Shown: piece by piece, positions 3,426 through 63,870 of the stretch
Numbering within the stretch: position 1 is the stretch's first letter
How the letters are laid out: the number at the start of each line of letters is the position of its first letter
DNA from: Patescibacteria group bacterium
GTDB lineage: Bacteria > Patescibacteriota > Patescibacteriia > UBA9934 > GWF2-40-263
Assembly: GCA_041661745.1 (NCBI GenBank)
Contig: JBAZTR010000001.1
Location: 15,740 to 79,739 of the forward strand
Direction of reading: 5' to 3'
DNA: 64,000 nt
Position numbers and translations under genes: made by a program
The notes under the pieces: generated by a model
Told to the model about the DNA's origin: nothing
Database searches by the model: none
What the model saw: the letters and a program-made list of their open reading frames with translations, nothing else

Positions 3426-3426
3426 T

Positions 3427-6220: not shown

Positions 6221-6859
6221 ATGAAAATAAAAAAAATAGTTTTTTACAGCTTTACTTTTGTTGTTTTCGCAATAATTGTTTTGTTTTTCGTTTCGCAATT
6301 TTTAGTTTGGCGAGCGGCTGAAGGAAAAATGTTTTCAGTGGCGGCAGCACCAAGTGAAACCGTGGTAATTGTCCCCGGGGCCAGTGTTCTTCGTTCTGGT
6401 CAGCCCTCGGATATGTTGGCCGATCGTTTGTTGACAGCAATCGATTTGTATCAGGCTGGTAAAGTTAGAAAGTTTTTGTTATCGGGCGATCATGGGCGAA
6501 CCGACTACGATGAAGTCGAGGCGATGCGCGAATATTTGTTAGCGCGTGATATTCCCGACGAAGATATTGTTCTCGACCACGCCGGTTTCGATACTTATGA
6601 CACCATGGTCAGGGCCCATGAAATTTTTCAACTTGAGGCAGTTCTGGTTGTCTCACAGACTTATCATTTGTCGCGAATAATTTATATTGGTGAAAATAAC
6701 GATATGGAGGTTTATGGTGTGTCAGCCGATCGTCAGACTTACGTTAAAATTGAATATTTTAAACTTAGAGAATCTTTAGCCAGAGTTAAAGCCGTTCTGA
6801 ACGTTTGGTTCAACAGTTCACCAAAGTATTTGGGTGAACCTATTCCCATTGTTTTTTAA
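6221..6859 (+). CDS. DUF218 family protein (SanA/YdcF/ElyC-like)
   Basis: N-terminal TM, then VVIVPGASV...LLSGDHGRTDYDEVEAMREYLLARDIP...VLDHAGFDTYDTM, the typical DUF218 motif pattern. Confidence 0.8.
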   Translation: MKIKKIVFYSFTFVVFAIIVLFFVSQFLVWRAAEGKMFSVAAAPSETVVIVPGASVLRSGQPSDMLADRLLTAIDLYQAGKVRKFLLSGDHGRTDYDEVEAMREYLLARDIPDEDIVLDHAGFDTYDTMVRAHEIFQLEAVLVVSQTYHLSRIIYIGENNDMEVYGVSADRQTYVKIEYFKLRESLARVKAVLNVWFNSSPKYLGEPIPIVF

Positions 6860-46050: not shown

Positions 46051-46470
46051 ATGATCAAATCCATTCGAATCTATACTGATGGTGGCGCTCGCGGCAATCC
46101 CGGCCCGGCCGGGTCAGGAGCCGTTATCAAATCACTCGATGAAGGTGGTGAAAAAACTATAGCTAAATTAAAAAAGTTTTTTCCGCATGCCACTAATAAT
46201 CAAGCCGAATACGACGCAATTATTTTGGGTTTAACCGAAGCCAAACGTCTTAAGGTTGAAGAAGTTGAACTAGTTATGGATTCGGAATTGGCGGTGAAAC
46301 AGATTCGCGGTGAATATCGAGTGAAAAATCCGGAATTAGCCAAGAAATTTTTGGAGGTTTACAATCTTTCGCGAGCCTTTAAAAAATTTAGTGCTCGCCA
46401 CATTATGCGCGAGCGAAATTTTGAAGCCGACGCCCTAGTCAACGAAGTCATTGATGAAAATTTAAAATAG
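46051..46470 (+). CDS. rnhA: ribonuclease H (RNase HI-like)
   Basis: IYTDGGARGNPGPAGSGAVI ... NNQAEYDAIILGL ... MDSELAV carries the DEDD catalytic residues. Confidence 0.85.
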   Translation: MIKSIRIYTDGGARGNPGPAGSGAVIKSLDEGGEKTIAKLKKFFPHATNNQAEYDAIILGLTEAKRLKVEEVELVMDSELAVKQIRGEYRVKNPELAKKFLEVYNLSRAFKKFSARHIMRERNFEADALVNEVIDENLK

Positions 46471-47905: not shown

Positions 47906-48430
47906 ATGGATTCTCCGTTGGGTAAGGAAGTCAAGAAAGAAAACCCACAAGAATTAATTGGTCCACCGGAGCCGCCAAAAGAGGCGCCGGAAATTGTTGT
48001 ATCCGAAACAAAAGAAGTATCGCCAGTTTTAGAACAACCGAAAGAAACTCCTGTTGCTACTCCCGAGGCTCCATTGCCGCCGCCCCCAGCAGCCGCAACT
48101 TTGGCTGCAGCCTCGGTTCCGCCGGTGGCTAAAGACGAATTTACTCAAGAAATTGAAAGCATTTTGTCCGAAGATTTAACTGATTTGTTTTTGAAAATGA
48201 CCCCCGAGCAGCAGGAGGAATTTCAGGCCAAGGGTGAAGAAACGGCTTCTAAAATTCGTATTATCTTATCATCAGCCAAAGTGGGAATGAAAAAAATCCT
48301 CGTACTTATCAGTGAATGGCTAAAGTTGATTCCCGGGGTCAATAAATTCTTCCTTGAGCAGGAAGCAAAAATAAAAACAGATAAAATCCTTCTTAACGCC
48401 GAAGAATTTCGGAAAGAAGGAAAACTATAA
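47906..48430 (+). CDS. hypothetical Pro-rich protein with C-terminal hydrophobic segment
   Basis: PEPPKEAPEIVV...PEAPLPPPPAAATLAAASVPP, with a 6-nt spacer after cysS. Confidence 0.55.
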   Translation: MDSPLGKEVKKENPQELIGPPEPPKEAPEIVVSETKEVSPVLEQPKETPVATPEAPLPPPPAAATLAAASVPPVAKDEFTQEIESILSEDLTDLFLKMTPEQQEEFQAKGEETASKIRIILSSAKVGMKKILVLISEWLKLIPGVNKFFLEQEAKIKTDKILLNAEEFRKEGKL

Positions 48431-48433
48431 GCC

Positions 48434-51025
48434 ATGTTTCTATCATTGTGGGCGGCCTTTTTGGCCGAAGAAGAGTCAACAATCGCAATACCGGGCGTCG
48501 CGGCATCAAGCGACGGGTTTTTTGCATTGATTATTTTGTCGGTGTTAGTGATTGGCGGATTAGCCTTTGTTGGATTATTAATTGCCCGATTCTTTTTATT
48601 GCGGCGTGTGCATGGGCGGACGGGTGGGTTGGAGTTAGTGGTTTTACAAATTTCTATTCCAAAATTTCGGCGGGCCGAGGAAGCGACTAAGGAGATTAAT
48701 ATCGAACAAATTCGCCAGCAGGTAGCCATAGCCGAATCTTTATTTGCTGCCGTCGGCGGTCTTAAAGCCCAGAAAAAATTTAAGCATTGGTTATTCGGTC
48801 GAACCGATGAAATGGCTTTTGAAATCGTCGCTAAAGATAAAATGATTTATTTTTACGTGGCTATTCCAAAATTTTTACAATCACGACTGGAGGAACAGAT
48901 TTCCGCGGTTTATTCCGATGCTCACTTGGAACAAGTTGAAGATTACAATATTTTTTCGCCCACCGGCACGGTGGCTGGAATGTACCTAACTTTTAAACGA
49001 CCGGTCGGTTTTCCCATTAAGACTTACCAAAAAATGGAGACCGATCCGTTAAACGCCCTAACCAACGCTTTATCAAAAATTGAAGATGGTGAAGGTGTGG
49101 TTATTCAGTATGTGGTTCGCTCGGCACGAGCCAGTTGGCGCAAAAAAGGTTTGGCCGTGGCCAAAAGTTTACAACAAGGGGCTTCGTTTGACGAAGCCAT
49201 GGCCGGCCACACCCCGGGAAAATCTAAAGATGGCTTTTTTTCATTTCTAAAAAATGAACCGACAAAACCACAACAAGAACAATCGTTTAGAGTTTCTTCG
49301 ACAACCGAAGAGGCTATTAAAAGTATTGAACAAAAAGCTAGCAAAGCCGGCATGGACGCCAATATTCGTTTAATTGTCTCCACGCCAAGTCCGGAACGGG
49401 CCGAAGCGACTTTGGCCAACTTGTTTACGGCTTTTTCGCAGTACAGTACCTATCAATTCGGTAACGCTTTTGGTAAAGCTGTGCCACGCAGCAAGGAACG
49501 CATGGTTAGACGGTTTATTTATCGAACTTTTGAAGAGCGTTACAAAGTTGTTTTAAATACGGAGGAAATGGCCAGTTTGTGGCACCTGCCGTTACCGACC
49601 ACCGAAACGCCGAACATTCAGTGGATGGCGGCGCGTCGCGGGGCAGCTCCGTCGGAAATTCCAGGTCCGGCCGAGGAAAATATTTTTCTTGGTAGCAATT
49701 TTTATCGCGGCAAAAAAACGCCAATTTACATTAAAAAAGGTGATCGGCAGCGTCACATGTATTTAATCGGTAAATCTGGTACTGGTAAAACGGAATTCAT
49801 GACTTCCATGATTTTGCAGGATATTAAAAATGGCAGTGGAGTGTGCGTGATTGATCCGCACGGCGATTTGGTTGATCGTATCGCCGGTAGTATTCCCAAA
49901 GAGCGCGTTGATGACGTTATTATTTTCGATCCGGCTGATACCGATCGTCCGGTTGGTTTAAACATGTTGGAAGCCAAGACCGAAGATCAAAAAGATTTCG
50001 TTTGCCAAGAAATGGTTTCTATTTTCTACAAACTTGTTACTGATCCGTCCATGATTGGCCCGATGTTTGAGCATCAAATGCGCAACGTCATGTTGACCTT
50101 AATGGCTGATGAAGAAAATCCCGGCACCTTGGCCGAAATTCCGCGCATGTTTACCGATCAAGAATATGCTGATCAGTGGATCGCCAAATTAAAAGATCCG
50201 ATGGTTCGCAATTTTTGGGATAAAGAAATGGCCAAAACTTCTGATTTTCATAAATCAGAAATGTTGGGTTACTTAATTTCCAAAGTTGGCCGCTTTGTCG
50301 AAAACGAAATGGTCCGTAATATTATCGGCCAGTCGCACAGCAGTTTTGATTTCCGCGAAATCATGGATAACAATAAAATTCTTTTGGTTAAACTTTCCAA
50401 AGGTTTGGTTGGGGAAATTAACGCCAACTTGCTCGGTTTGATTATCGTTTCTAAACTGCAAATGACCGCCCTTGGCCGAGCTAACATGGACGAAAGTCTA
50501 CGCAAAGACTTCTATTTGTACATCGACGAGTTCCAAAACTTTGTCACCAATTCCATTGCCACTATTTTGTCTGAGGCTCGCAAATATCGTTTGTGTCTGG
50601 TCATGGCTCACCAGTATTTGAACCAGTTGGTTGATAACCAGGGCAAAGCCGAGGTGCGCGACGCTGTGCTTGGTAACGTTGGCACAACCTTTGTCGCTCG
50701 CGTTGGACCGGAAGACACGGAGATTTTACAAAAAATATACGAACCGTATTTTTCCGGTTATGATTTGATTAACTCGGAAAAGTTTACCTGGTACACCAAA
50801 ATGATTGTCGATAACACGGCTGTAAAACCTTTCACACTCTCGACTTTTAACAAGAACCTACCCAGAGGTAACCCTGAATTGAAAAAAGCTATATTTGAAC
50901 TTTCACGGCTCAAATATGGTCGCGACAAGGCTTTGGTTAATGCGGAAATCATGGAGCGTGCCAATTTGGGTGGCGCAAATTCGCCCGAAGCTGACTTGAA
51001 TCCGGTTGGCGAATCAGCCTTATAA
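48434..51025 (+). CDS. membrane-anchored P-loop ATPase of the TraG/VirD4/TraD (type IV coupling protein) - FtsK/HerA superfamily
   Basis: Two N-terminal TM helices, Walker A MYLIGKSGTGKTEFM and Walker B FYLYIDEFQNF (DEF-type, as in T4CPs). 863 aa. Confidence 0.65.
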   Translation: MFLSLWAAFLAEEESTIAIPGVAASSDGFFALIILSVLVIGGLAFVGLLIARFFLLRRVHGRTGGLELVVLQISIPKFRRAEEATKEINIEQIRQQVAIAESLFAAVGGLKAQKKFKHWLFGRTDEMAFEIVAKDKMIYFYVAIPKFLQSRLEEQISAVYSDAHLEQVEDYNIFSPTGTVAGMYLTFKRPVGFPIKTYQKMETDPLNALTNALSKIEDGEGVVIQYVVRSARASWRKKGLAVAKSLQQGASFDEAMAGHTPGKSKDGFFSFLKNEPTKPQQEQSFRVSSTTEEAIKSIEQKASKAGMDANIRLIVSTPSPERAEATLANLFTAFSQYSTYQFGNAFGKAVPRSKERMVRRFIYRTFEERYKVVLNTEEMASLWHLPLPTTETPNIQWMAARRGAAPSEIPGPAEENIFLGSNFYRGKKTPIYIKKGDRQRHMYLIGKSGTGKTEFMTSMILQDIKNGSGVCVIDPHGDLVDRIAGSIPKERVDDVIIFDPADTDRPVGLNMLEAKTEDQKDFVCQEMVSIFYKLVTDPSMIGPMFEHQMRNVMLTLMADEENPGTLAEIPRMFTDQEYADQWIAKLKDPMVRNFWDKEMAKTSDFHKSEMLGYLISKVGRFVENEMVRNIIGQSHSSFDFREIMDNNKILLVKLSKGLVGEINANLLGLIIVSKLQMTALGRANMDESLRKDFYLYIDEFQNFVTNSIATILSEARKYRLCLVMAHQYLNQLVDNQGKAEVRDAVLGNVGTTFVARVGPEDTEILQKIYEPYFSGYDLINSEKFTWYTKMIVDNTAVKPFTLSTFNKNLPRGNPELKKAIFELSRLKYGRDKALVNAEIMERANLGGANSPEADLNPVGESAL

Positions 51026-51040
51026 AACAAAAACAAAATT

Positions 51041-51658
51041 ATGAACGACGACGAATTGTTGGAAGATGATTTTAGTTTCGAGCCAGAACCGGAGGAAGCG
51101 CCGCGTAAAAGCGAACCTGACCCGCGTCTGGCTTTGGCAAAAAAGATTTTAAAGCAACTCCACGAAAATTTGGGGAATGTTATTGACTTACTCGATGGAG
51201 GAAATATCGAGGAAGCGAACACTGATTTTGCCAAACTGGTGGCTTCAAAAAAAGAAGCCGAGCATACACTTGATGATATTTCCGGATCCCGCGTAATTGA
51301 AGGCGTCTTTGATGGCCAAGCCATGATTGGTTCTGATGGCAAAAGTTATGCTGTACCGCCCAACTATGCCTCCAAATCTCGCCTGGTTGAGGGTGACATG
51401 TTAAAACTCACCATTAAACGCGATGGTACTTTCTTGTTTAAACAAATTGGCCCCATCGAACGCGCTCGTTTGGTAGGCAAGTTGGCTTTTGATGCCTCGG
51501 TTGGAACATTTGTCGCCATGATCGGCGAACAAAATTATAAACTTATAACAGCCAGTGTCACCTTTTTTCACGGTGAACCGGGCGACGAAATTGTCGTTTT
51601 GGTTCCGAAAAATACGCCCAGCGTTTGGGCAGCCGTGGAGAACGTGGTGAAGAAATAA
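51041..51658 (+). CDS. hypothetical protein (acidic N-terminus)
   Basis: 205-aa ORF in the same operon. No motif recognised. Confidence 0.55.
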   Translation: MNDDELLEDDFSFEPEPEEAPRKSEPDPRLALAKKILKQLHENLGNVIDLLDGGNIEEANTDFAKLVASKKEAEHTLDDISGSRVIEGVFDGQAMIGSDGKSYAVPPNYASKSRLVEGDMLKLTIKRDGTFLFKQIGPIERARLVGKLAFDASVGTFVAMIGEQNYKLITASVTFFHGEPGDEIVVLVPKNTPSVWAAVENVVKK

Positions 51659-51679: not shown

Positions 51680-54600
51680 GTGTGTATGTATTGGACTAAT
51701 AATTTTAAGAAAATATCATTGTACACGGGTTTGTTTTTATTTTCATTCTCGCTGTTTTTTTTGGTTTGGAATGTCGCTTATGGAGCCAGTCCTGTTACGG
51801 ATTTTGTGCATTTTGACGGAGACGCCTCGGACAATTGGGCGGGCTTTAGTTCAGAGATGATGGATTTCAACAACGATGGAAACGATGACCTTGTTATTGG
51901 TGTAATTTCTGAAGGGACGGTAGGTGCGGAAGTTGGAGCAATTTATATCATCTATGGGGATGGTTCGACCTGGACATCGATGTCAATAGCGGATGCGGAT
52001 GTAAAAATTACCGGGGCGACAGATTCAAATGGGATTGCCTATATGGGGAAAGAAATTATTAATGCCGGCGACGTGGATGGAGATGGAATAGATGATTTAC
52101 TTTTTGGGGCTGAACGAGGAGAAGGAAATAGTATTTTAGATAACGGGCTTGCCTTTTTAGTCTATGGCGGGCAAGGTTTGAGTGGAACGTATAGTGCAAA
52201 CAATATTGGCACAACGATCGCCGGCGCGACATTCTATGGAACAGTCGCACAGGAACAGGCCGGCTCACGATTGTCTGCAGGTGATTTTAACAATGATGGG
52301 TACAATGATCTTTTGGTGAGCGGTATCCTTTATGCCACCGGATTGGCCCAACGAGGTGCAGGATATTTGATTTACGGGGATGATACACGTTTGAGTGGCA
52401 CGAACGCATTGTCAAATGTCGGGGGCTCCATTGCCGGGGTTACTTTTGTTGGAGCCGCGGCCGGAGATCGACTTGGGAAAGGGGTTCGCATGATTGATGT
52501 TGATGGGGATGGCTATGATGATGTGCTTGTGAGTGCAACACTTGCACATTATGGTGGAATCGCAGACGTTGGGGTGACTTATCTCATTTATGGCAACCAA
52601 ACGTTAGTGAGTCCGGTGGATGTTTCAAATGTTGGCGGAAGTGTGACTGGGGCATCATTTTATGGAGAAGTCTTAAATGATTCCTCGGGAAACGATATCA
52701 TGGGCGGATTTTTCAACGAGGATGCTTATGGCGATTTTAGTATTTTTGCAAATGCGGCTGACAACGGAGCTATTAGCAATGTAGGCGTGAACTATTTGAT
52801 CTTCGGGGCCGCGACGCGTTTTACAGGAGCAAATGCGCTAAGTGGCGTGGGTACCACCATTTCAGGATTGAAATTCGTGGGCGAAGGGGAAAGCGATCGG
52901 TTTGGAAATTATTTTACGTCCGCAGATATCAATAATGATGGACTGAAAGAGTATATTGTGACCGCAACATCCAATGATAATGGCGGGGCAATTACGGATA
53001 GTTATGGAGCAATGTACATTGTTTATCGCAATCAGGTGCTTACAAGCCCCATCCTTGCCTCAACCATCGGGACAACGGTAAGCGGAGTAAAATTTGTTGG
53101 AGAAGAGTTAGGCGGGCTTTTGGGGTTTGATGTGACAAATATTGGAGACGAAAACGGCGACCATTATGAGGATGTTTTGGTGGGCGCGTATAAGGTAGAT
53201 GTTGGTGCTTATACAGATGCCGGTAAGGTCTATTTGGCCTATTTTTATATTGACGCGGATCACGACGGTTATCCGGGCACCGCGGGAGTTTTTGATGGTA
53301 CGGATAAGGATGACGCCGATCCGCTTGTACTTGATAGTTGGCATCCGACGATTACAGGCGTCAGTGGGGTTGAGGCAACGGACGGAGGTGGGGAAGTGAC
53401 GGTCACATTTACATTGGATGACCCGGACAATGACGATAATTGCCAAGCAAAAATTGAATACAGTATTGATGGAGGTTCAACTTGGAGTGATCCGACAATA
53501 AGCACCACGAATAGTGATACCACGGCCACCTATGGTGATCCGGACATTGATAATTCGGCCACGTATCAAGTGGGAAAGGCTGGAGCGTATATCACTACCT
53601 CTTCTGGAGCCAACACCGTGGTTGTTAAATGGAATTCGTTGGTCGATGTTCCCACGGCTAATGTTTCAAATGCGCAAATCCGTGTGACTCCTTATGACAG
53701 TCATGCCCCGGGCACTGCGGTCGCGTCTTCGAATTTTATTTTAGATAACGTTGACCCGGCCAGTCTTGCTTCTCTAGCCTACGGCACGTCCACTTACAAT
53801 ACTCTCTCCGTTACCTGGACGGCTGCCACTGATACCAATTTTGACCACTACGAACTTTGGTATGGGACAAACCAAAGTGATGTTGATAGTCTCACCGGCA
53901 CGGCCGCGGAATGGGATAATAGTGATGATGCGGCACTGACCACAGCCACCACAGCTGTCACGACAATTACTAACCTTTCTTCGTTTACAACCTATTACTT
54001 TAAAATATTTGCCATCGATGATTACGGAAACGAATCAACTTTAAGCTCTGTTAGTGCGCGGACGACCAAGAAGGGTTCATCGAGCGGCAGCGGTTCAATC
54101 ACGCCAGCTCAATTGTCAAACTTCGCCGTGATTCAAAAGAACTTTCCTACAGCTACAACCATAAAGACTGGCGAAGCGACCAGCTTCTCTTGGTTGTCAA
54201 CTAAGATCGGCTATTTAATCAATCTTTGGTATTCCCTGGACAATGGGGAAACCTATATAAAAATTGTCGGGCCGGCCGCTGACACCGAAACCTACGAGTG
54301 GACCACACCTAGTAATCTTTCCGGCACTAAAATTATTTTTAAATTGGAGTTAACTGACTCAATAGTAATTCTCGATACCGAGATCACAGAGTTTTCTATT
54401 TTTACGGAAGCAATCGAAGAGGATGTTCAAGAAGAGATAAGTATCATTGGTGCGGTGCTAGAAAGTGTCTTCGGCGGCCGCTGGGAAATTAATCTCGAAG
54501 AATCAGGTATTACCGAAGTTTTCGGCGACTTTCCGGAAACAGTTTCCATTGGTTCACTCATCAAACTGCCTGATGATGGCGACCTCACCACTCAATTCGA

Positions 54601-54952
54601 TTCTGCCGTTTACTACGTCGGGGTCGATAAACGTCGCCACGCCTTTCCCAATGAATCTGTCTATAAAACCTGGTTTCCCGACTTCTACGACATCAGAACC
54701 GTTGATCAAACCACTATGGCCAGTATTCCTTTGGGACCAATGGTGACTTATCGTCCCGGTTCAACCTTGGTTAAATTTCCTTCAGTTCCTAAAGTTTATT
54801 CCATTGATTCCACCGGCTGCCTTCACTGGCTAACCTCAAGGGAACTAGCTATCGACATGTATGGCACAGACTGGGCCGAGATTGTCAAAGACGTTTCCGA
54901 AGCCTTCTGGTCCAGTTACTGTTTCGGTGATGATCTGGTTGCCTCGCGATAA
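51680..54952 (+). CDS. large secreted surface protein with FG-GAP/integrin-alpha-type beta-propeller repeats, Fn3/Ig-like middle, and conserved about 175-aa C-terminal domain
   Basis: Signal/TM at the N-terminus. FG-GAP Ca-binding loops: DFNNDGNDDLVIG, GDVDGDGIDDLLFG, GDFNNDGYNDLLVSG, IDVDGDGYDDVLVSA, ADINNDGLKEYIVTA and IGDENGDHYEDVLVGA. The C-terminal domain is shared with the downstream giant protein. Confidence 0.8.
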   Translation: MCMYWTNNFKKISLYTGLFLFSFSLFFLVWNVAYGASPVTDFVHFDGDASDNWAGFSSEMMDFNNDGNDDLVIGVISEGTVGAEVGAIYIIYGDGSTWTSMSIADADVKITGATDSNGIAYMGKEIINAGDVDGDGIDDLLFGAERGEGNSILDNGLAFLVYGGQGLSGTYSANNIGTTIAGATFYGTVAQEQAGSRLSAGDFNNDGYNDLLVSGILYATGLAQRGAGYLIYGDDTRLSGTNALSNVGGSIAGVTFVGAAAGDRLGKGVRMIDVDGDGYDDVLVSATLAHYGGIADVGVTYLIYGNQTLVSPVDVSNVGGSVTGASFYGEVLNDSSGNDIMGGFFNEDAYGDFSIFANAADNGAISNVGVNYLIFGAATRFTGANALSGVGTTISGLKFVGEGESDRFGNYFTSADINNDGLKEYIVTATSNDNGGAITDSYGAMYIVYRNQVLTSPILASTIGTTVSGVKFVGEELGGLLGFDVTNIGDENGDHYEDVLVGAYKVDVGAYTDAGKVYLAYFYIDADHDGYPGTAGVFDGTDKDDADPLVLDSWHPTITGVSGVEATDGGGEVTVTFTLDDPDNDDNCQAKIEYSIDGGSTWSDPTISTTNSDTTATYGDPDIDNSATYQVGKAGAYITTSSGANTVVVKWNSLVDVPTANVSNAQIRVTPYDSHAPGTAVASSNFILDNVDPASLASLAYGTSTYNTLSVTWTAATDTNFDHYELWYGTNQSDVDSLTGTAAEWDNSDDAALTTATTAVTTITNLSSFTTYYFKIFAIDDYGNESTLSSVSARTTKKGSSSGSGSITPAQLSNFAVIQKNFPTATTIKTGEATSFSWLSTKIGYLINLWYSLDNGETYIKIVGPAADTETYEWTTPSNLSGTKIIFKLELTDSIVILDTEITEFSIFTEAIEEDVQEEISIIGAVLESVFGGRWEINLEESGITEVFGDFPETVSIGSLIKLPDDGDLTTQFDSAVYYVGVDKRRHAFPNESVYKTWFPDFYDIRTVDQTTMASIPLGPMVTYRPGSTLVKFPSVPKVYSIDSTGCLHWLTSRELAIDMYGTDWAEIVKDVSEAFWSSYCFGDDLVASR
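54425..54949 (+). repeat. copy 1 of dispersed about 525-bp repeat encoding shared C-terminal domain (copy 2 at 63297..63821)
   Basis: Copy 1 reads ...KLPDDGDLTTQFDSAVYYVGVDKRRHAFPNESVYKTWF...GCLHWLTSRELAIDMYGTDWAEIVKDVSEAFWSSYCFGDDLVA. Copy 2 reads ...KLPDDGDPTTQFDSAVYYIGLDKRRHAFPNEQVYKSWF...GCLRWLTSEELAIDMYGPDWARIVKDVSEAFWSSYCFGDDLVA. Confidence 0.75.
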
Positions 54953-54970
54953 TAACAAACATACAAATAA

Positions 54971-54999
54971 ACACCCGGGAATTTCGGGTGTTTTTGTTT
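54971..54999 (+). terminator. rho-independent terminator
   Basis: acacccg-ggaattt-cgggtgt is followed by TTTTGTTTG. Confidence 0.6.
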
Positions 55000-55052
55000 G
55001 TGGATAAACTCAGAAGTTTTTTCTGTTTTGTGCTAAAATAGAATCAAATTTT

Positions 55053-58000
55053 ATGGCGCTAAAAAGGAATAATCCTAATTGGATAAACCGATTTTTTTCG
55101 GTTAGTTTTTTGTTTATTGTGGCTCTCTTGTTTTTCAGAGCCAGCCCGACTCTTGCTGCGGCTGTCTCTTGGGACAGTGGTGGGGCCAACAATGATTGGG
55201 AAACCGCAGCCAACTGGTCAGGCGACGCTGTGCCGACCGATGCTGATGACGTAACGATTGATTACGCTGAAACAATTAATATCAATGCAACGACGACGAT
55301 TAATTCTTTGACCGTTGGCGGCACAAACGCGACAGTTTTGAATTTTGATTACGATGCGCTGACTGCGGGAGCACTTATTATCGACGCCGGGGCTTTGACT
55401 GTGGCGGCGAACGGAACGATTACTCATACAGCTGGTTCAACAACCTCGGTGCTTGGCTCAGTTTATATTGATGTACAAACTGGAGGTGCCACAATCACAG
55501 GAACAATTAATGTGGACGCAAAAGGATACACAGAGGGATATGGGACAGGTGTCGGAGGAAATAACTTTTCCGGAGGAGGATTTGGTGGTGAGGGCGGCCG
55601 AGGGGAAAGCGGAACAAGCGGTACAACCTATGGCTCAATCACAGCACCGGTTAGTTTGGGTAGCGGTGGAAACTCATATTGTGGCGCTTCGTCAGGGCAT
55701 GGAGCTGGTGCCGTTCGATTGCATGTCGCTGGGGAACTTAGCGTGGCTGGCAGTATTTCAGCCGTCGGAGGCGATGGCACTGCCTGGTGTGCTGGCGCCG
55801 GTTCAGGTGGGTCGATTTATTTGGATGCAGGAACAATTTCAGGGGCCGGAACAATTTCTGTAAATGGAGGAGCAGACACAAACGGAGAATTACGAGGCGG
55901 TCATGGGGGTGGGGGTCGCGTTGCCATGTATTACGACACAAAAACCTATTCAGGAGGTTTAACCGCATATACGGGATCCTTCGGGAGTAACACTTATTAT
56001 GGTGGGGCTGGAACAATTTACGTTAAGGATAACGCACAGCCCAATGGTGATTTAACAATCGATAATAATTCAAAGGACAATACCACGAGCGATACGGCGA
56101 TTGGAAAGACAAATCTTTCCACCGCGACCTATAAAACGCTTACGATTTCCAATGATGGTCACATCGATATCCAGTCTGGACAGACACTTACCTATACGAC
56201 GCTCACCTGGACCGGTGGAAACATAACAGATAGCGGAGGAACGCTAAATACCGTAACGACCGGGGATGTTGTGATCCCAGCGAGTTCCTATTTCTATGCC
56301 AATGGGAATTATACTGGAGCCAGTGCTTGGACGACATTGCTCGTGAACGGGGTGCTCACACATTCAAACAATGTGAACCTAGCAACATATGATTTGGATG
56401 TAGAGACGACCAGCACGGCAGAAATTGCTGCAGGCGGTTCAATTGATGTTTCCGGTCGGGGTTTTACAAAAGGGAATGGAACCGGCACTGGTAGTGGACA
56501 AGGTGCTGCGGGTGGGCATGGTGGCCAGGGCGGACCAGGTGATGGAACAGGTGGAGGAGTTTATGGTTCCATTACAGCCCCAATTACGCTTGGGAGCGGT
56601 GGAAATAGCAGCTGCGGAAGCGGTGGGCAAGGGGGTGGGGCAGTGAAATTAACTATTGGCACGACATTGACCGTGACGGGAGACATTCTTGCTTCTGGGA
56701 GCAATGCAAGCAACGATTGGTGTTCCGCAGCTGGTGCTGGGGGGTCAATTTATTTGGATGTTACAACAATGGCGGGCGCAGGGGCGATGACTGCTGGTGG
56801 TGGAAATGCAGTAAATGGGGAGCTTCGAGCTGGGGGCGGAGGTGGAGGACGAATCGCATATTATTACGATTCTTCAACTTATTCGGGCACGGTAACTGCA
56901 TATGGTGGATATCAGGCATCGAATTACTATATCGGGGCGGCAGGAACGATTTATGAAAAAGATAACGATGACGCGAATGGTGATTTAAAAATTGATAATA
57001 ATAGCCACGATAATGCAACGTACGATGCATGGCTTGCGCGAACCCCACTTACCCCAACAAGCACTCCTCTTTCTCTGACAGTAGATTCACTCACCCTCTC
57101 CAACGATGGCCACCTATTACTCACCGCAGATACTACCATCGATTACACCACAATTTCCTGGACCGGAGGGAATATTACGGATCGTGGAGGTGTCATGAAT
57201 GATTTGCTGGGTAGCAGTGTTGACATGACCATTCCAACCGGATCAATGTTTTATGCAGATTACGCGCGCACGTTAAATAGTTTGACGGTCGATGGAACTC
57301 TTACACACTCGCAAAATTATTCCACGGCAACATATCGCATGAATTTGACCGTTACCACGGACATGACGATTTCTGCTTCGGGTTCCGTAACTGCTTACGG
57401 GAAGGGTTTTGTGGGTCAGCAAGGGAATGCGACGGGAAAAGGATACAGTACAAACTCTGGTGCGGGATATGGAGGGCAAGGGTATGGGGTGAACACTTCT
57501 TACGGAAACGTCTATGGATCAATTACTGCTCCAACAGATTTGGGAAGTGGTGGAGGAAGCTATATTGGTTGGGCAACGGATGCGAAAACGCTTTACGGTG
57601 GTGGTGCTATCCAACTTACTGTCGGGGGCGAACTAGATGTTTCAGGGTCGATAAATGTCAATGCGTTCACGGGGAGCACGATCTATTGTGATGGAGCCGG
57701 TCAGGGATCCGGCGGGTCAATTTATCTTGATGCCGGCACGCTTTCCGGAGCCGGTTCAATGACAGCGAATGGAGGAATCCCATGTCATGCCAATGGTGGG
57801 GGCGGTGGCGGTGGTCGTATTGCAATTCATTACACCACAAATTCTTCGACACTAGTACCGACAGCATATGGTGGGTGGATCACGGGCGGTGTTAGATTTG
57901 GTGGTGCTGGAACAGTTTATTGGAACGATAAAGATGGCACCGACAATTTAGTGATTGATAATAATAGCCACGATTATACCAGTTCAGTAATTGGATATAA

Positions 58001-61000
58001 CCGCGGTAGAACCGTTCTTACAAACAGTGGAACTCCCGCATCTTTTACTTTTGATACCGTTACCATTTCTAACAGCGGCGACCTTTTATTAAATTCGGAT
58101 ACAACAATTATTTCAACAACAAATACCTGGACTGGCGGAGATATTACCGACCAAGGAGGTACGTGGAATTCATTGTTGACGAATCTTGTTATTCCTACCG
58201 GGGCAAGATTTTATGCAGACACAACAAGAAGTGTTACTTCGGTTGTTGTAAACGGCACAATGACCCATTCATTAAATTCCACAGCGGAAACATACAAAAT
58301 AGATTTCACAACAACCGGAGATTTTACTATCGGAGCGACTGGTACAGTGAATGTTGATGGCTATGGATTTACAGGGCGATATGGGACTGGTGCCGGGGTC
58401 GACGCCGGAACCTATGGATCTGGTGGTGGATACGGAGGTCGCGGTGGTGCAACATCTGATGGCGGGGATACCGGCGGTGCTACCTATGGTTCGGCAACAG
58501 CGCCAACCAATATTGGATCAGGCGGAAGTGGAAATAATGGAACAACAACCGGTGGAAAATCCGGCGGCGGTGCCATTAAGTTAACAGTTGGTGGAAATTT
58601 AGCAGTTGGTGGAGAAATTACCGCTGATGGTGGAACGGAAATGACCTTTGGAAATTCTTGGGAAAACTGGGGCGGCGGTTCTGGCGGATCAGTGTGGTTA
58701 GACATAGTGGGAACACTGTCCGGTACAGCAAATATTACCGCTGATGGTTCCGGAGGGAAGACTGCGGGTGATGGCGCCGGTGGCGGTGGACGTATTTATA
58801 TTACTTGTTCAGCCGATTCACATTCGGGATCAATGAGTGTTATTACCGGTACGGTTGGTATAGCGGGTGGAGGTGGAACCGCGACACTAGTTTTAGAAAC
58901 TCCTCCAACATCTCCAACAATTTCCAACCCTCTTAGTAATTCTTATAACAATAGTTTAACTCCGACCATTACCGGTTCTACTTATGTTTCCGATGTTGCC
59001 CACGTTTCAACTGATTGGAAAGTTGTGGCGTCTTCGGATACTTGTTCAAGCACTGCTGTTTGGGAATCAGAACACGATGCTGTTAATTTAACTTCCATTA
59101 CCGTCGGAGTAGCTCTAACTGCCAGCACAACATATAAGGCATGTGTACGTTATACCAATAGTTTTGGTGATAGCAGCTGGTCTACCGCTATAACTTTTAC
59201 AACTCAATTCGGTGGAACTAGTAACAGTACTACTTGGGATTTTGATGAGGGCGTTGTCGCCGACAATTATGATTTTAATGATATTTATGTTGAGTTGGAT
59301 GCTTCGGGGAATAGTTTAGCCAGACTAAAAGATTTGGGAGCTGGGGTTTATAGAGGGGCTCAATATCCCGGTTATGCTAAGCGCAAAGAAATTACCATTA
59401 CCAATACCACAGCTACGGAGTTAACTAACTATCAGGTTAAGCTCAATGTTTTGTATGACTCCGACATGCAGGCAGATTTCGATGATATTAGGTTTGCTTC
59501 GTCTGACGGATCAACATCAATTGATTTTTGGTTAGAAAGTAAAACCGATTCATCAAAAGCAATCGTGTGGGTTGAGGTGCCAACCATAGGGGCTTCCACT
59601 ACTGCTACGATTTACATGTATTACGGAAACACAAGTGTAAGCAGTGCCAGTAATGGCGCGAATACATTTGATTTTTTTGATGATTTTGAAAGTTACGCCG
59701 TAGATTCAAACATCAATGGTCAGGGAAGTTGGGTTGCTTCTGTTATTGGTGGCAGCGGCGAGGCAAAGGTAAGGAGCGTAAATAGCAGAAACCATTTAAG
59801 AGTTTCTTCTACTAGTACTGGTAGTGCAATTTACAATACATTGATTGGATCAAAAACCGTTTCATCTACACTGGGGTATGCCATTGAATCCTATGTTTCG
59901 CCAGCCGCAGTTGGGGAATGTACAACATATTTCTTTGGAAACACTACAACGATTGGTCCTGATAACGTCGGTCCGAATGATGGGCATGGGGCGTTTTGGA
60001 TTGGTAATGGAGGAACGCCTTGGTCGTGGGTTCGTTCTCACGTTTCCGGAGTACGTGTCGATGGCACATACAATAAAGGCGATACCGCAAGCGTTGGGAC
60101 TTACTATCGTTATACATTCAAGTGGCTAGGTACAAGTTTAAATGCCCTTAAGGACGGGAAAGCAACGTTTTCAACCACTTCTTCAGCCTTTTCCGGGTTT
60201 ACCAATATTTGGGTTGGCACATATAATCCTGCTTCTTGGAACCATGACTGGATTCTTGTAAGAAAGATAACATCTTCTGATCCTGCGATTGCTTGGGGTA
60301 ATGAAGCTAGCACAGTGTTATTGGATTGGAACTATCGCCAGGCTTTTAGTGTTTTTAACGAGACTGCTTCGGAATTAACAAATTTTCAGGTCAAAATAAA
60401 TGTTCCATATAATTCCTCAATGCAAACTGATTTTGACGATGTTCGCTTTGCCTCATCCGACGGTACCACGTTGCTTGACTATTGGTTAGAAACAAAAACA
60501 GATTCTTCTGTTGCCACGTTCTGGGTGGAAATTCCAACAATCGGTGCCTCTTCTTCTACAAATATTTATCTTTATTATGGGAATAGTGGGGCAAGCAGCG
60601 TAAGCAATGGTACAAATACTTTCGATTTTTTTGATGATTTTAGTGGAGATTTGAGTAAATGGACTGCTATCGGTTCGTTTGACACAACGGGCGGCACATT
60701 GAACTTTGTGAGCGGAGCTAGTTGTAGTTCTTCGTTTTGTTTCTTGTTGGCAGATACAGCATCGATGTTTTCTGATTATGTGATGGATTACAGTATGTAT
60801 TACGCCCCAGCTCTTGATAACGGCGCTATTCACCGTTCTCAATCAAAAGTTAACGCCGACAATACGTACGCCACGATTAAAAGGCATGTTCCCAACAACC
60901 ACTATTTTCATCGTCGGGTAGCGACGGCTTGGGGCGCGGCCATAAATGAATTAGCTTATACATACACCGACAATGTTTGGATGTATATGCAGGAAACATT

Positions 61001-63824
61001 TGCTGGTTCGACTCTTAGTACAAGATTTTTTTCTGATCAAGCGAGGACAAATTTAGCAACCTATAATTCTTGGACAGAAGCCTCTTGGGGCACTGGATAC
61101 GTTGGAATTTATAATTATTCAACTTCAACCGGCGTTAAATGGGATGATTTTAGAATTCGCAAATATGCCGCTACCGAACCAACCGTTGTTCCAGGCGGTG
61201 TTGAAAGTGTTGCGTCTTTTGATGAGATTTCTGTTGCTCCTTCCACAGCCGGCACTCACCCCATATACAACGAACTCTATGGTCTCGGGGCCACCACCGG
61301 AACAGTGGAAGGATCAATTGGTTATACTGTTTCTAACAATGGTACCAACTGGTACTATCACAACGGTTCGGCCTGGGTCGCTGTGACAACCGAAACCTCT
61401 CAGTACAACACTCTTGCTCAAGTTGATGCATACCTATATGACTTCACCTCAGAAATCGGCGATGGTGAATTCTATTTCAAAGCTTTCCTTATTTCCGACA
61501 CCACCCAAGAAGTTGAACTCAACAGCCTCACCCTGACATACATTGGTATGCCCACGGTTAACTGGACCACCGCCAGCCAATCTGGTGCAGAAGACGCCGG
61601 CGGCCTGACGGTCACGGCTTCGCTTTCTTTTTCATACGCTCTTGATGTCACGATTCCGTACACAGTGACCGGTACGGCCACTGGTTCGGGAACAGACTAT
61701 TCCATCACGGCCAGTCCGCTGGTTGTCACAGCCGGCAGCACCACCGGCAATGTCACCATCACCGTGACCAATGATGTTATCGATGAACTGGACGAAACCG
61801 TGGTTGTCACCATGGGTTCACTGACTAATGGTATTAAAGGGGCCACTGATGTTCACACCGCTACCATCACCGATAACGATGCCGCCCCAACCATTGCCGT
61901 GGCTGATGTTTCTGTTGCTGAAAACGCCGGTCCGGGTACGGTCACGGTCACCATGACCGGTGGTTCATACCTCGGCACCTCGGTTAACTATGCCACCTCT
62001 GACGGCACAGCTCTTGATGGCACTGACTACACCGCCACCTCCGGCACCCTGACCTGGGCGGCTGACGCCACCGGTGACAAGACCTTCACTATCACTCTCT
62101 CTGATGACACCTTGGACGAAGATGATGAAACAGTCACCATCACTCTTTCCGTTCCGGTTAACGCCACGATTTCTGACACCACCGGAGCTTTAACCATCAC
62201 TGACAATGATGATCCCCCGACCATTACTTTCGATAGCAACACTGCCTCTGGTTCTGAAGCAACGTCTCCAGCCGCTTTTAACGTTTCATTATCTGCCGCT
62301 TCCGGTCGAACAATTACCGCCACCTGTGCCACGCACGCCATCACGGCCACGGCCGGTACTGACTACACGGCAATTTCCTCAACCTTAACCTTTAGTCCCG
62401 GTGATACTTCTAAAACCGTTAACATCACCATCAGCAATGACGCTTTGGACGAAAACAACGAAACCTTTAGTCTTCATCTTAACGACTACTCCAACGTCAC
62501 AGCCGGCACCTATACTGCCGATACCTATACCATCACCGACAACGACGATCCGCCAACCGTTTCCTGGACCACTTCCTCTCAATCCGTGACCGAAGACGCC
62601 ACCACGGCCACCATCACTGCCGAACTTAGTGCTGCCTCTGGTCTAACTGTCACTATTCCATACACCATGACCGGCACAGCCACCGGCAGCAGTACTGACT
62701 ACACCATCACCGCCAGCCCCGTGACCATCTCGGCTGGTTCAACCACCACCGATGTCACGGTCACTATTATCGAAGACGCTGTGGTGGAAACCGATGAAAC
62801 CGTCATCACCACCATTGGTTCACCGACCAATGCTTCGACCGGGGCCACCACAGTCCATACCTTAACCATTGCCAACGATGATCGTCGAAGCAAACCAACT
62901 CCATCCACCGGTGACACAACCCCCAGCACAATTAACCTAACCTCGCCAACCGATAACGAACAACTAATCGCCGGTTCCTTTAAAACCATCACCTGGTCTT
63001 CCACCGGCACCTTTGGTTTCGTTAACCTGGCCTATTCCACTGACGGCGGAGTCTCCTATCAAACAATTGAAGACAACTTAGTCAACTCCGGCTCTTATTA
63101 TTGGTCTATTCCCAACCAATCTGTCACCAACGGCTTCATCAGAATCGAAGGCACTGATCTCGCCTCTATCCTAACCTCTGACATAATTCCGTTCACCACG
63201 TTTGTCACGACCACACCAATCGATGAGGAAACTCCGGCCGAAGAAATCCCCACCGAAGAGGAAGCCGCCGAACAAATAAGTCTTATCGGTATGGCACTAG
63301 AGAGTGTTCTTGGTGACCGCTGGATCAACGAAGCGGAAAAGAACGGGGTCTGGGAAATCTTCCCGGATCTTCCGGAAGAAGTTTCCATTGGCACTCTGGT
63401 TAAACTGCCTGATGATGGCGACCCGACCACCCAATTCGATTCCGCTGTCTATTACATCGGCCTCGACAAGCGCCGTCACGCTTTCCCTAACGAACAGGTA
63501 TACAAATCTTGGTTCTCCACTTTCTATGGCATCAAGACCATCGACTCAGTCACTATGTCCAACATTCCACTCGGCCCCATGGTGACTTATCGTCCGGGTT
63601 CAACTCTAATTAAATTTCCTTCCATTACCAAAGTCTATTCCATTGATTCCGAAGGCTGTCTCCGCTGGTTAACCTCGGAAGAACTAGCCATCGACATGTA
63701 CGGTCCAGACTGGGCCAGAATCGTCAAAGACGTCTCCGAAGCCTTCTGGTCCAGCTATTGCTTTGGTGACGACCTCGTCGCTGCCAATGATCAAGATTGG
63801 GATACGGTGATTGCCTCGCAATAA
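55053..63824 (+). CDS. giant (2923 aa) secreted surface protein: repeated Gly-rich parallel beta-helix modules, 2x DUF2341/LamG-like jellyroll domains, about 5x Calx-beta domains, Ig-like domain and conserved C-terminal domain
   Basis: Signal peptide MALKRNNPNWINRFFSVSFLFIVALLFFRASPTLAAA. About 4 repeats of roughly 300 aa (GYTEGYGTG...GSITAPVSLGSGGNSYCG...GGSIYLDAGTISGAG...GGGGRVAMYYD...DLTIDNNS). DUF2341-like domains NYQVKLNVLYDSDMQADFDDIRFASSDGS...DFWLE appear twice. Calx-beta units TVTASLS...DVTIPYTVTGTATGSGTDYS...NDVIDELDETVVVT appear about 5 times. Confidence 0.85.
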   Translation: MALKRNNPNWINRFFSVSFLFIVALLFFRASPTLAAAVSWDSGGANNDWETAANWSGDAVPTDADDVTIDYAETININATTTINSLTVGGTNATVLNFDYDALTAGALIIDAGALTVAANGTITHTAGSTTSVLGSVYIDVQTGGATITGTINVDAKGYTEGYGTGVGGNNFSGGGFGGEGGRGESGTSGTTYGSITAPVSLGSGGNSYCGASSGHGAGAVRLHVAGELSVAGSISAVGGDGTAWCAGAGSGGSIYLDAGTISGAGTISVNGGADTNGELRGGHGGGGRVAMYYDTKTYSGGLTAYTGSFGSNTYYGGAGTIYVKDNAQPNGDLTIDNNSKDNTTSDTAIGKTNLSTATYKTLTISNDGHIDIQSGQTLTYTTLTWTGGNITDSGGTLNTVTTGDVVIPASSYFYANGNYTGASAWTTLLVNGVLTHSNNVNLATYDLDVETTSTAEIAAGGSIDVSGRGFTKGNGTGTGSGQGAAGGHGGQGGPGDGTGGGVYGSITAPITLGSGGNSSCGSGGQGGGAVKLTIGTTLTVTGDILASGSNASNDWCSAAGAGGSIYLDVTTMAGAGAMTAGGGNAVNGELRAGGGGGGRIAYYYDSSTYSGTVTAYGGYQASNYYIGAAGTIYEKDNDDANGDLKIDNNSHDNATYDAWLARTPLTPTSTPLSLTVDSLTLSNDGHLLLTADTTIDYTTISWTGGNITDRGGVMNDLLGSSVDMTIPTGSMFYADYARTLNSLTVDGTLTHSQNYSTATYRMNLTVTTDMTISASGSVTAYGKGFVGQQGNATGKGYSTNSGAGYGGQGYGVNTSYGNVYGSITAPTDLGSGGGSYIGWATDAKTLYGGGAIQLTVGGELDVSGSINVNAFTGSTIYCDGAGQGSGGSIYLDAGTLSGAGSMTANGGIPCHANGGGGGGGRIAIHYTTNSSTLVPTAYGGWITGGVRFGGAGTVYWNDKDGTDNLVIDNNSHDYTSSVIGYNRGRTVLTNSGTPASFTFDTVTISNSGDLLLNSDTTIISTTNTWTGGDITDQGGTWNSLLTNLVIPTGARFYADTTRSVTSVVVNGTMTHSLNSTAETYKIDFTTTGDFTIGATGTVNVDGYGFTGRYGTGAGVDAGTYGSGGGYGGRGGATSDGGDTGGATYGSATAPTNIGSGGSGNNGTTTGGKSGGGAIKLTVGGNLAVGGEITADGGTEMTFGNSWENWGGGSGGSVWLDIVGTLSGTANITADGSGGKTAGDGAGGGGRIYITCSADSHSGSMSVITGTVGIAGGGGTATLVLETPPTSPTISNPLSNSYNNSLTPTITGSTYVSDVAHVSTDWKVVASSDTCSSTAVWESEHDAVNLTSITVGVALTASTTYKACVRYTNSFGDSSWSTAITFTTQFGGTSNSTTWDFDEGVVADNYDFNDIYVELDASGNSLARLKDLGAGVYRGAQYPGYAKRKEITITNTTATELTNYQVKLNVLYDSDMQADFDDIRFASSDGSTSIDFWLESKTDSSKAIVWVEVPTIGASTTATIYMYYGNTSVSSASNGANTFDFFDDFESYAVDSNINGQGSWVASVIGGSGEAKVRSVNSRNHLRVSSTSTGSAIYNTLIGSKTVSSTLGYAIESYVSPAAVGECTTYFFGNTTTIGPDNVGPNDGHGAFWIGNGGTPWSWVRSHVSGVRVDGTYNKGDTASVGTYYRYTFKWLGTSLNALKDGKATFSTTSSAFSGFTNIWVGTYNPASWNHDWILVRKITSSDPAIAWGNEASTVLLDWNYRQAFSVFNETASELTNFQVKINVPYNSSMQTDFDDVRFASSDGTTLLDYWLETKTDSSVATFWVEIPTIGASSSTNIYLYYGNSGASSVSNGTNTFDFFDDFSGDLSKWTAIGSFDTTGGTLNFVSGASCSSSFCFLLADTASMFSDYVMDYSMYYAPALDNGAIHRSQSKVNADNTYATIKRHVPNNHYFHRRVATAWGAAINELAYTYTDNVWMYMQETFAGSTLSTRFFSDQARTNLATYNSWTEASWGTGYVGIYNYSTSTGVKWDDFRIRKYAATEPTVVPGGVESVASFDEISVAPSTAGTHPIYNELYGLGATTGTVEGSIGYTVSNNGTNWYYHNGSAWVAVTTETSQYNTLAQVDAYLYDFTSEIGDGEFYFKAFLISDTTQEVELNSLTLTYIGMPTVNWTTASQSGAEDAGGLTVTASLSFSYALDVTIPYTVTGTATGSGTDYSITASPLVVTAGSTTGNVTITVTNDVIDELDETVVVTMGSLTNGIKGATDVHTATITDNDAAPTIAVADVSVAENAGPGTVTVTMTGGSYLGTSVNYATSDGTALDGTDYTATSGTLTWAADATGDKTFTITLSDDTLDEDDETVTITLSVPVNATISDTTGALTITDNDDPPTITFDSNTASGSEATSPAAFNVSLSAASGRTITATCATHAITATAGTDYTAISSTLTFSPGDTSKTVNITISNDALDENNETFSLHLNDYSNVTAGTYTADTYTITDNDDPPTVSWTTSSQSVTEDATTATITAELSAASGLTVTIPYTMTGTATGSSTDYTITASPVTISAGSTTTDVTVTIIEDAVVETDETVITTIGSPTNASTGATTVHTLTIANDDRRSKPTPSTGDTTPSTINLTSPTDNEQLIAGSFKTITWSSTGTFGFVNLAYSTDGGVSYQTIEDNLVNSGSYYWSIPNQSVTNGFIRIEGTDLASILTSDIIPFTTFVTTTPIDEETPAEEIPTEEEAAEQISLIGMALESVLGDRWINEAEKNGVWEIFPDLPEEVSIGTLVKLPDDGDPTTQFDSAVYYIGLDKRRHAFPNEQVYKSWFSTFYGIKTIDSVTMSNIPLGPMVTYRPGSTLIKFPSITKVYSIDSEGCLRWLTSEELAIDMYGPDWARIVKDVSEAFWSSYCFGDDLVAANDQDWDTVIASQ
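63297..63821 (+). repeat. copy 2 of dispersed about 525-bp repeat (shared C-terminal domain)
   Basis: See copy 1. The identity is about 80% nt by eye, and a similar terminator follows. Confidence 0.75.
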
Positions 63825-63842
63825 AAACAAATAGACAAAAAA

Positions 63843-63870
63843 CACTCGGGTTCCCGAGTGTTTTTGTTTT
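63843..63870 (+). terminator. rho-independent terminator
   Basis: cactcggg-ttc-ccgagtg is followed by TTTTTGTTTT. Confidence 0.6.

Follow-up and report, generated by a model that had tools for sequence, protein, structure and literature searches.

In a 64,000-nucleotide (nt) stretch of genome from a Patescibacteria group bacterium (contig JBAZTR010000001.1, positions 15,740 to 79,739; hereafter the window), two adjacent genes for giant adhesin-like proteins—open reading frame (ORF) A, with FG-GAP repeats, and ORF B, with Calx-beta domains—end in paralogous copies of one C-terminal domain (CTD). This domain belongs to a large extracytoplasmic family that no catalogue lists and that occurs in the sampled Patescibacteria genomes. 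The function that we favour, giving it an even chance, is that of a position-independent, non-covalent module that tethers proteins to the cell envelope. The finding is thus the discovery of a domain family with a proposed function rather than of a new mechanism, and the new family probably does a familiar job in an understudied lineage.

Two adjacent giant genes share their 3′ ends

ORFs A and B are co-directional on the + strand. Their parts, with lengths in amino acids (aa), are as follows.

51680..54952, + strand: ORF A, 1090 aa if read from the GTG and 1088 aa if read from the ATG at 51686; from N- to C-terminus a signal peptide, FG-GAP propeller repeats, fn3/Ig-like domains, a Ser/Gly linker, an Ig-like domain, an acidic linker and the CTD
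51686..51784, + strand: signal-peptide-like N-terminus of ORF A (MYWTNNFKKISLYTGLFLFSFSLFFLVWNVAYG), from translation and hydrophobicity
54092..54556, + strand: Ig-like domain and acidic helical linker of ORF A, with a homologous counterpart in ORF B at lower identity
54557..54949, + strand: CTD copy A (LIKLPDDGD...FGDDLVASR), with repeats R1 (54599-54760) and R2 (54788-54943)
54969..54993, + strand: intrinsic-terminator-like hairpin A (AAACACCCGGGAATTTCGGGTGTTT, then a T-run)
55053..63824, + strand: ORF B, 2923 aa; from N- to C-terminus a signal peptide, four Gly-rich repeats of ~330 aa, two DUF2341 domains, four Calx-beta domains, an Ig-like domain, an acidic linker and the CTD
55053..55157, + strand: signal-peptide-like N-terminus of ORF B (MALKRNNPNWINRFFSVSFLFIVALLFFRASPTLA), from translation
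62910..63395, + strand: Ig-like domain and acidic helical linker of ORF B, paralogous to 54092-54556
63396..63821, + strand: CTD copy B (LVKLPDDGD...FGDDLVAANDQDWDTVIASQ), with repeats R1 (63438-63599) and R2 (63627-63782)
63838..63865, + strand: intrinsic-terminator-like hairpin B (AAAAACACTCGGGTTCCCGAGTGTTTTT), of a palindromic A-tract/T-tract form that scores on both strands

When the last 400 aa of the two proteins were compared, BLASTP aligned 359 aa at 50% identity (E = 1e-106), bearing out a preliminary description of this DNA in which the adjacent giants had a paralogous C-terminal domain in common. Identity was ~30% (aa) and 55% (nt) in the Ig-like domain, 64% (nt) in the acidic helical linker, and 82% (aa) and 76% (nt) over a 136-codon core of the CTD; upstream, the homology reaches through the Ig-like domain to ~54092 and ~62910. 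The peptide motifs first quoted for the two ends agree with the translations, and two of the figures given with them needed revision. The domain had been put at ~175 aa: the part conserved family-wide (LVKLPDDG ... FGxDI) spans ~130–150 aa, and the acidic helix of ~40 aa that precedes it is common to the two paralogues only. The nucleotide identity had been put at ~80%, which is the protein figure; the two 525-bp stretches compared at the time were offset by 33 nt, copy B being longer by 11 codons at its C-terminal end, and once re-registered they are 74% identical over 492 nt (shuffled controls: mean 51%, maximum 55%).

The similarity continues beyond the stop codons, and both genes are indeed followed by closely similar GC-hairpin terminators, as had been noticed from the start. 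The 3′ untranslated region (UTR) and hairpin are ~71% identical between the copies, and the hairpin arms covary, a C-to-T change in the 5′ arm being paired with a G-to-A change in the 3′ arm. The motif was not found elsewhere in the window, and we therefore rejected a dispersed repeat element as its origin. The duplicated unit took in the terminator. Terminators of the same A-tract/GC-stem/T-tract form also lie 3′ of genes for CTD-carrying proteins (carriers) in other genomes (loci L001, at 6462-6510, L026 and L075), the first of which has AAACACCC...GGGTGTTTTTG in common with copy A, so that part of the 3′ similarity between A and B is generic.

An assembly artefact, raised in the preliminary description as an alternative source of the similarity, is unlikely: the exact 2923-aa ORF B protein is recorded on public contigs of four length classes, up to 0.2–1 Mb. 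Of three contigs looked up, one place had the FG-GAP gene directly upstream and dnaX downstream, and two further places had largely the same neighbours. The shared 3′ ends therefore stand. The gene called for ORF A on a public contig has the length of the 1088-aa form that starts at the ATG.

Pfam recognised FG-GAP repeats and an fn3 domain in ORF A, and two DUF2341 and four Calx-beta domains in ORF B. Each protein has one hydrophobic segment, which is N-terminal and resembles a signal peptide; in ORF A, hydrophobic 18-mers occur at residues 10–11 only. The ORF A signal peptide would be cut after AYG, and the ORF B signal peptide is likewise predicted to be cleaved. We looked for an LPXTG motif and for a C-terminal hydrophobic 18-mer in both ORFs and found neither, while loose [LIV]Px[TSA][GNAS] matches all lay far from the C-terminus; the motif and hydrophobicity scans thus agree with the first account, which had seen no LPXTG and no C-terminal transmembrane segment.

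Residues ~40–1400 of ORF B (55160–59300) are made up of four consecutive Gly-rich repeats of ~330 aa (...GSITAP..LGSGG...GGSIYLDAGT.SGAG...GGGGRIA.YY...), which match no Pfam model except for a weak G8 match at the extreme N-terminus. To judge from their sequence, they probably form a beta-helix stalk.

A large domain family of Patescibacteria

That the domain falls outside the well-characterised families, as first supposed, held for Pfam, NCBIfam, PHROGs and PDB sequences, none of which gave a meaningful match. In Pfam, no family matched the CTD at E <= 1, and the matches that 24 members gave at E <= 10 were isolated, at chance level and never to a wall-binding family. PDB sequences compared with the domain profile and with a merged single-repeat profile returned chance-level matches only (the antibody framework 'AVYYC', PQQ propeller blades, and EccB1 at E ~1). 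No match to the CTD was seen by tblastn in 50,697 phage records, none to any known sorting domain in NCBIfam, and we found no description of it in the searchable literature.

The family itself proved large. By word-indexed search, 38 relatives were found, or 590 once a profile was used; when 1.84 billion cluster representatives were searched exhaustively with a profile, 5202 clusters (50% identity, E <= 1e-3) came back, including 2334 at E <= 1e-30. In a scan of one genome for each species, 417 matches were confirmed; the genome-locus statistics below refer to the best 79 loci of these 417. Several genomes yielded at least three carrier loci among the 79, and in 11 of the 79 loci two or three carriers lie within 6 kb. 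Those hits that carry a name are called 'hypothetical', 'SH3 domain-containing' or 'cupredoxin domain-containing'.

All of these named hits belong to Patescibacteria or Uhrbacteria. The 79 loci come from metagenome-assembled genomes (MAGs) labelled Patescibacteria, Candidatus Uhrbacteria or ~1-Mb 'uncultured Gammaproteobacteria'. MAGs with the last label, 'uncultured Gammaproteobacteria bacterium', measure ~1 Mb or less, have CAY*, CAZ* or OZ accessions and account for loci L001, L005, L010, L076 (OZ246408.1) and ~30 others. These labels are presumably placeholders or errors; the domain is otherwise seen in Patescibacteria only.

One domain on many passengers

In 80 of the 92 carrier ORFs at the 79 loci, the CTD ends no more than 20 aa from the C-terminus, and the same bias was seen in the representative set; as a terminal module, it recurs on secreted proteins that look like adhesins. 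The domain is also found at other positions, however. It occupies the N-terminus of a GH5 cellulase (P0140) and of cupredoxin proteins of ~260 aa (P0250, P0276 and relatives), sits at both ends of P0040 and P0042, lies internally in several proteins, and stands alone after a signal peptide in P0255. Its presence at the N-terminus and at both ends speaks for a module that folds and binds, and against a terminal signal.

Among 120 scanned representatives, the partners of the CTD were overwhelmingly extracellular (Big_1/Invasin_D3, He_PIG, PKD, fn3, Calx-beta, TSP3, beta-propellers and CarboxypepD_reg), with a GDSL lipase and DUF3048 besides. Further passengers are the GH5 cellulase, cupredoxin, SH3_3 and PG_binding_1, the last two combined with the CTD in small proteins. 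A single constant module on enzymes, a redox protein and adhesins is the pattern that a localisation module would give. A crude test found a signal-peptide-like h-region in 142 of 168 Met-initiated members, and many members begin with what resembles an ordinary signal peptide that can be cleaved (such as ...AMA/GG or ...ALA/DT).

Of the two cupredoxin carriers named above, P0250 has an intact C-x2-H-x2-M type-1 copper motif, which P0276 has lost. A tethered extracytoplasmic blue-copper protein is a curious thing to meet in organisms with minimal respiration.

Anatomy and predicted structure of the domain

The invariant residues of the CTD are mostly aromatic, Gly and Pro, with Arg, Asn, Lys and Asp in addition, and D-G-K-R-H-A-F-P-N and Y-R-P-G-x-R-M-V-K-F stand out as the sharpest motifs. 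Profile-to-profile, one half of the domain aligns with the other over 49–51 columns (aVYYig.dGkRHaFPn... with kVYaV..gG.LRWv.tE...; E = 2e-4), so that the CTD is an internal duplication of a ~50-aa unit. The AlphaFold models of the 200-aa stretch (predicted local distance difference test, pLDDT, 85.4) and of the domain alone (88.6) are both confident and both show beta-beta-alpha-beta-alpha twice, and the pLDDT of copy B exceeds 90 over most of the CTD.

Both window copies contain a Cys pair (in GCL and SYCFG), with codons as follows.

54668 and 54770: Cys codons of copy A, at profile columns 95 and 129
63657 and 63759: Cys codons of copy B, at the same columns

The two Cys occur together in both window copies and in none of the 285 others among 287 aligned instances. 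Members of other clades have a different Cys pair, at the N-terminal edge (KLVCP....DHPCKAVYY). Such clade-specific pairs look like disulfides, which would fit an oxidising extracytoplasmic site, and the pair in the window is probably a lineage-specific disulfide across the second repeat.

In a Foldseek search of the PDB with the domain-only model, EccB1 and EccB5 took all of the ten best places with their periplasmic domains (top probability 0.97, E = 7e-3), and EccB chains also headed the list for the 200-aa model. No PDB match of either model reached E < 1e-3, and the hits that followed EccB were all noise-like at E > 1. Superposition on EccB gave TM-scores of 0.24–0.32 and an rmsd (root mean square deviation) of ~18 Å, values that we attribute to single repeat units superposing while their mutual arrangement differs. 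Among models of viral proteins, the best matches were small uncharacterised actinophage proteins (TM 0.67–0.70 on the target), followed by weaker partial matches to CHAP-domain and lysozyme proteins.

The repeats R1–R4 of EccB, a core component of the mycobacterial ESX (type VII) secretion system (4kk7, 3x3m, 5cyu, 7nps), are thus the sole consistent structural match. As modelled, the CTD appears to resemble EccB in the size of its unit (~50 aa) and in its content (a small sheet and two helices); in both, the units are in tandem and outside the cytoplasm. In sequence, however, the CTD has no match to PF05108 (T7SS_ESX1_EccB) at E <= 10, and the repeat profile reaches EccB1 only at E = 0.9–1.1. 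The setting differs as well: EccB consists of an N-terminal transmembrane helix, a central core and four repeats and is encoded in an ESX locus with EccC, EccD and MycP, whereas the CTD is a pair of repeats on unrelated secreted proteins, and none of the recurrent neighbours of carriers looked like an ESX gene. As modelled, the CTD resembles EccB-type repeats at the level of the fold and is not a member of that family.

A candidate cell-envelope tether

In the scheme that we propose, proteins would be exported by Sec and lose their signal peptide, whereupon the CTD would bind a component of the wall, be it peptidoglycan, an associated glycopolymer or the S-layer, and so keep their otherwise soluble passengers on the envelope of the cell itself. 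In ORFs A and B, it would fix the C-terminus at the wall and let the FG-GAP propeller or the beta-helix/Calx-beta stalk project outward. Envelope binding, its target and signal-peptide cleavage are steps that we infer. The CTD has the traits of a generic tether: it is extracytoplasmic, folds autonomously, is indifferent to position, and occurs on several carriers in some genomes, with unrelated passengers. Also in favour of this reading, the two window copies evolve under strong purifying selection (below), ORFs A and B offer no LPXTG motif or C-terminal transmembrane segment as another anchor, and the small repeats are of a kind known from an envelope-spanning machine and, more remotely, from a wall-binding protein of a phage. 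Anchoring, sorting and secretion recognition had all been offered in the preliminary description; anchoring fits best among them, and sorting and secretion are not supported, given the position independence of the domain.

Several observations weigh against a tether. Signal anchors that stay uncleaved at the N-terminus would make the CTD the distal tip of the protein and not its anchor. The 25 Pfam families seen most often per set (120 representatives scanned) included no fusion to a peptidoglycan hydrolase. Many wall-binding modules for anionic polymers are basic, and the CTD is acidic, with a median isoelectric point (pI) of 5.3 and values of 4.4–4.7 in the window copies. The structural matches of the models are weak, with no PDB match at E < 1e-3 and with low TM-scores and a high rmsd; moreover, peptidoglycan binding by EccB is itself no more than a suggestion in the literature. 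Finally, PlyCB (4F87), the wall-binding ring of a phage lysin, was absent from the top 50 Foldseek matches in the PDB.

A wider claim, which we regard as unlikely, is that a large branch of Patescibacteria displays its surface proteins mainly by means of the CTD, either as a hitherto unrecognised wall-binding fold for a lineage-specific envelope polymer or as a binder of the host wall that would directly determine episymbiotic attachment.

The main rival, unlikely in our view yet to be taken seriously, turns the protein around: an uncleaved signal anchor would hold it in the membrane, and the CTD would be a lectin-like or other ligand-binding tip directed at a host wall, a cell or a polysaccharide, much like the binding domain at the C-terminus of invasin, or like a carbohydrate-binding module (CBM) on a glycoside hydrolase. 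The CTD does come after Big_1/Invasin_D3 arrays, the place of the tip domain in invasin, is joined to a GH5 cellulase in the manner of a CBM, and combines invariant aromatics with Arg, Asn, Lys and Asp, a mix typical of glycan-binding sites. Cultivated Patescibacteria are described in PMC11623550 as episymbionts that have to bind host surfaces. However, many carriers begin with what look like cleavable signal peptides, the CTD is N-terminal in several architectures, and cupredoxin and SH3_3 passengers have no obvious need for a target-binding tip. The core motif is also strongly kept across thousands of clusters, which is easier to reconcile with one constant self ligand than with a diversity of ligands on hosts.

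A possible sorting machinery and the neighbourhood of carriers

Returning to the proposed tether, its position independence bears equally on the suggestion that the CTD is recognised by a dedicated sorting, secretion or processing machinery, like the CTD of the type IX secretion system (T9SS), and is perhaps removed or covalently attached in the process. The strong C-terminal bias (80 of 92 carriers) and the genomes with multiple carrier loci would suit such a machinery, as would the location of the CTD genes in the window downstream of an ATPase that resembles a type IV coupling protein (T4CP).

47906-51658: 174-aa ORF, 863-aa T4CP-like ATPase and 205-aa ORF, directly upstream of the FG-GAP gene

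Upstream of ORF A, cysS and these three genes follow one another with gaps of 3–21 nt. The C-terminal half of the 863-aa ATPase is TrwB/T4CP-like, and the 174-aa and 205-aa ORFs that flank it are without a Pfam match. From this spacing, the upstream genes and the FG-GAP gene may form one operon that would unite a coupling-protein-like ATPase with giant surface proteins. Co-occurrence of the ATPase with the CTD in other genomes, which the preliminary description had proposed to look for, was not observed: neither the ATPase nor the 174-aa or 205-aa ORF had a tblastn match within 6 kb of carriers at any of the 79 loci (0/79), and we rejected the link.

No other partner took its place. All 52 proteins of the window were compared with the 79 loci by tblastn, and 710 flanking ORFs were clustered de novo; together, these yielded only generic hits (ABC ATPases, peroxiredoxin, RluD-like, UvrA, RuvA and FemAB-like proteins, each at no more than 11 of the 79). 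The clustering gave housekeeping families only (each at no more than 8 of the 79), and no processing enzyme or partner that recurs next to carriers at these loci emerged. The early idea of a C-terminal sorting or secretion signal was thus not supported, the domain being also N-terminal, internal, at both ends or alone, with no conserved processing gene nearby. Carriers are moreover already equipped with Sec-type signal peptides, NCBIfam gave no match to a known sorting domain, and Patescibacteria are thought to lack an outer membrane, so that a second translocation step is not expected. We consider dedicated sorting improbable.

A protein that by eye looks like a peptidoglycan-bridge enzyme of FemAB type lies within 6 kb of carriers in 7 of the 79 loci (L070, at 2952-3974, and six others). 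It is the one recurring wall-related neighbour, and its recurrence probably reflects synteny among related MAGs.

History of the two copies

The preliminary description had also raised recombination between the two genes. On that account, ongoing recombination or gene conversion keeps the 3′ ends alike as a cassette for swapping N-terminal adhesin modules. The window copies are indeed nearest to each other (82% aa identity, compared with at most 67% to any other sequence found, in a family whose close relatives are sparsely sampled), their similarity runs through the 3′ UTR and terminator, tandem carriers occur in 11 of the 79 loci, and over evolutionary time the CTD has been joined to many architectures. 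The substitutions tell otherwise. With a synonymous divergence (dS) of ~1.5, a ratio of nonsynonymous to synonymous divergence (dN/dS) of 0.08, a third-position identity of 56% and a longest identical run of 22 nt, the two CTDs go back to an old duplication whose copies purifying selection on the protein has held alike, and not to recent gene conversion. For most of the other tandem pairs, similarity between the paralogues falls short of that to orthologues elsewhere, and the terminator form that A and B share also follows carriers elsewhere. Gene conversion was rejected on dS, run length and the tandem-pair comparison, which leaves the cassette very improbable.

An enzyme or toxin—for example a wall-modifying hydrolase that large delivery proteins carry at their end, with the SH3_3 and CTD proteins as autolysin-like forms—has a slimmer chance still. 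In its favour, SH3_3 or PG_binding_1 joined to another domain is a classic autolysin layout, and the alignment has invariant Arg, Asn, Lys and Asp as well as a His and a Glu that at least 90% of its sequences keep. However, the 'conserved Cys and His' on which an enzymatic domain had first been suggested are not borne out, as the Cys pair is present in 2 of 287 instances, being private to the two window copies and thus not catalytic for the family, and the His of RHAFPN, kept at ~90%, is replaced by Tyr in some members and subfamilies; the fold, consisting of two small repeat units, matched no catalytic domain, and a domain duplicated at both ends of one protein would be odd for an enzyme. Polymorphic toxins, for their part, join a variable C-terminus to a constant N-terminus and are accompanied by an immunity gene, which is the opposite of the CTD proteins: here the C-terminus is constant and the N-termini vary, and each gene is followed by a terminator rather than an immunity gene, with dnaX coming next after ORF B.

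Relation to known surface modules

If the CTD is a tether, its closest functional analogues are other modules that hold proteins at a wall. PlyCB of the streptococcal phage lysin PlyC and the wall-binding domains of endolysins resemble it as small modules that tether a partner to the Gram-positive wall; PlyCB, however, is an octameric ring made from a separate phage gene, did not appear among the top 50 matches of the CTD, and belongs to a phage world in which none of the 50,697 records contained the domain. The same logic governs the classical non-covalent wall anchors of monoderm bacteria, namely SLH, CWB2, LysM, GW, SH3b and choline-binding repeats—a repeated small module, at either end of the protein, on several proteins per genome and with unrelated passengers. 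These classical modules differ from the CTD in fold, and the CTD matches none of their Pfam or NCBIfam models, is acidic and has all its examined loci and named hits in Patescibacteria. SH3_3 and PG_binding_1 co-occur with the CTD in carriers. LPXTG, PEP-CTERM and T9SS CTD signals share with it a mostly C-terminal place on large surface proteins. Unlike sortase and T9SS signals, the CTD comes with no LPXTG, transmembrane segment or basic tail, is a globular, position-independent domain of ~135 aa, and has no processing gene that we could find.

Patescibacteria, also called the Candidate Phyla Radiation (CPR), account for much of the diversity of bacteria, and most of them are uncultivated; cultivated members live attached to other microbes. 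We know of no answer to the question of how they hold giant adhesin-like proteins at their surface. One uncatalogued domain now marks thousands of their secreted proteins, among them adhesin-like giants, a cellulase, cupredoxins and SH3 proteins. A specialist will not be astonished by another CPR-specific domain; it is the combination of abundance with a likely role in surface display that makes the anchoring question directly testable. With a profile of the CTD, annotators could flag tethered surface proteins at once. Should the wider claim above hold, in either form, the CTD would offer a sequence handle for listing the whole surface proteome of these uncultivated bacteria and, as a CTD-GFP probe, a means of labelling them or their hosts. 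The isolated domain would be a simple reagent for finding the envelope component that it recognises. For the two genes of the window, the CTD marks the end that is probably fixed to the cell.

Other features of the window

Two further genes drew our attention. A 1285-aa ORF at 11825-15682 gave a weak match to nSTAND_NTPase5 (E = 1.4e-4) and is otherwise unannotated. Between recJ and cysS, at 46051-46470, lies a gene for a 139-aa protein of the RNase H / RVT_3 type that has an ordinary RNase HI-like look.

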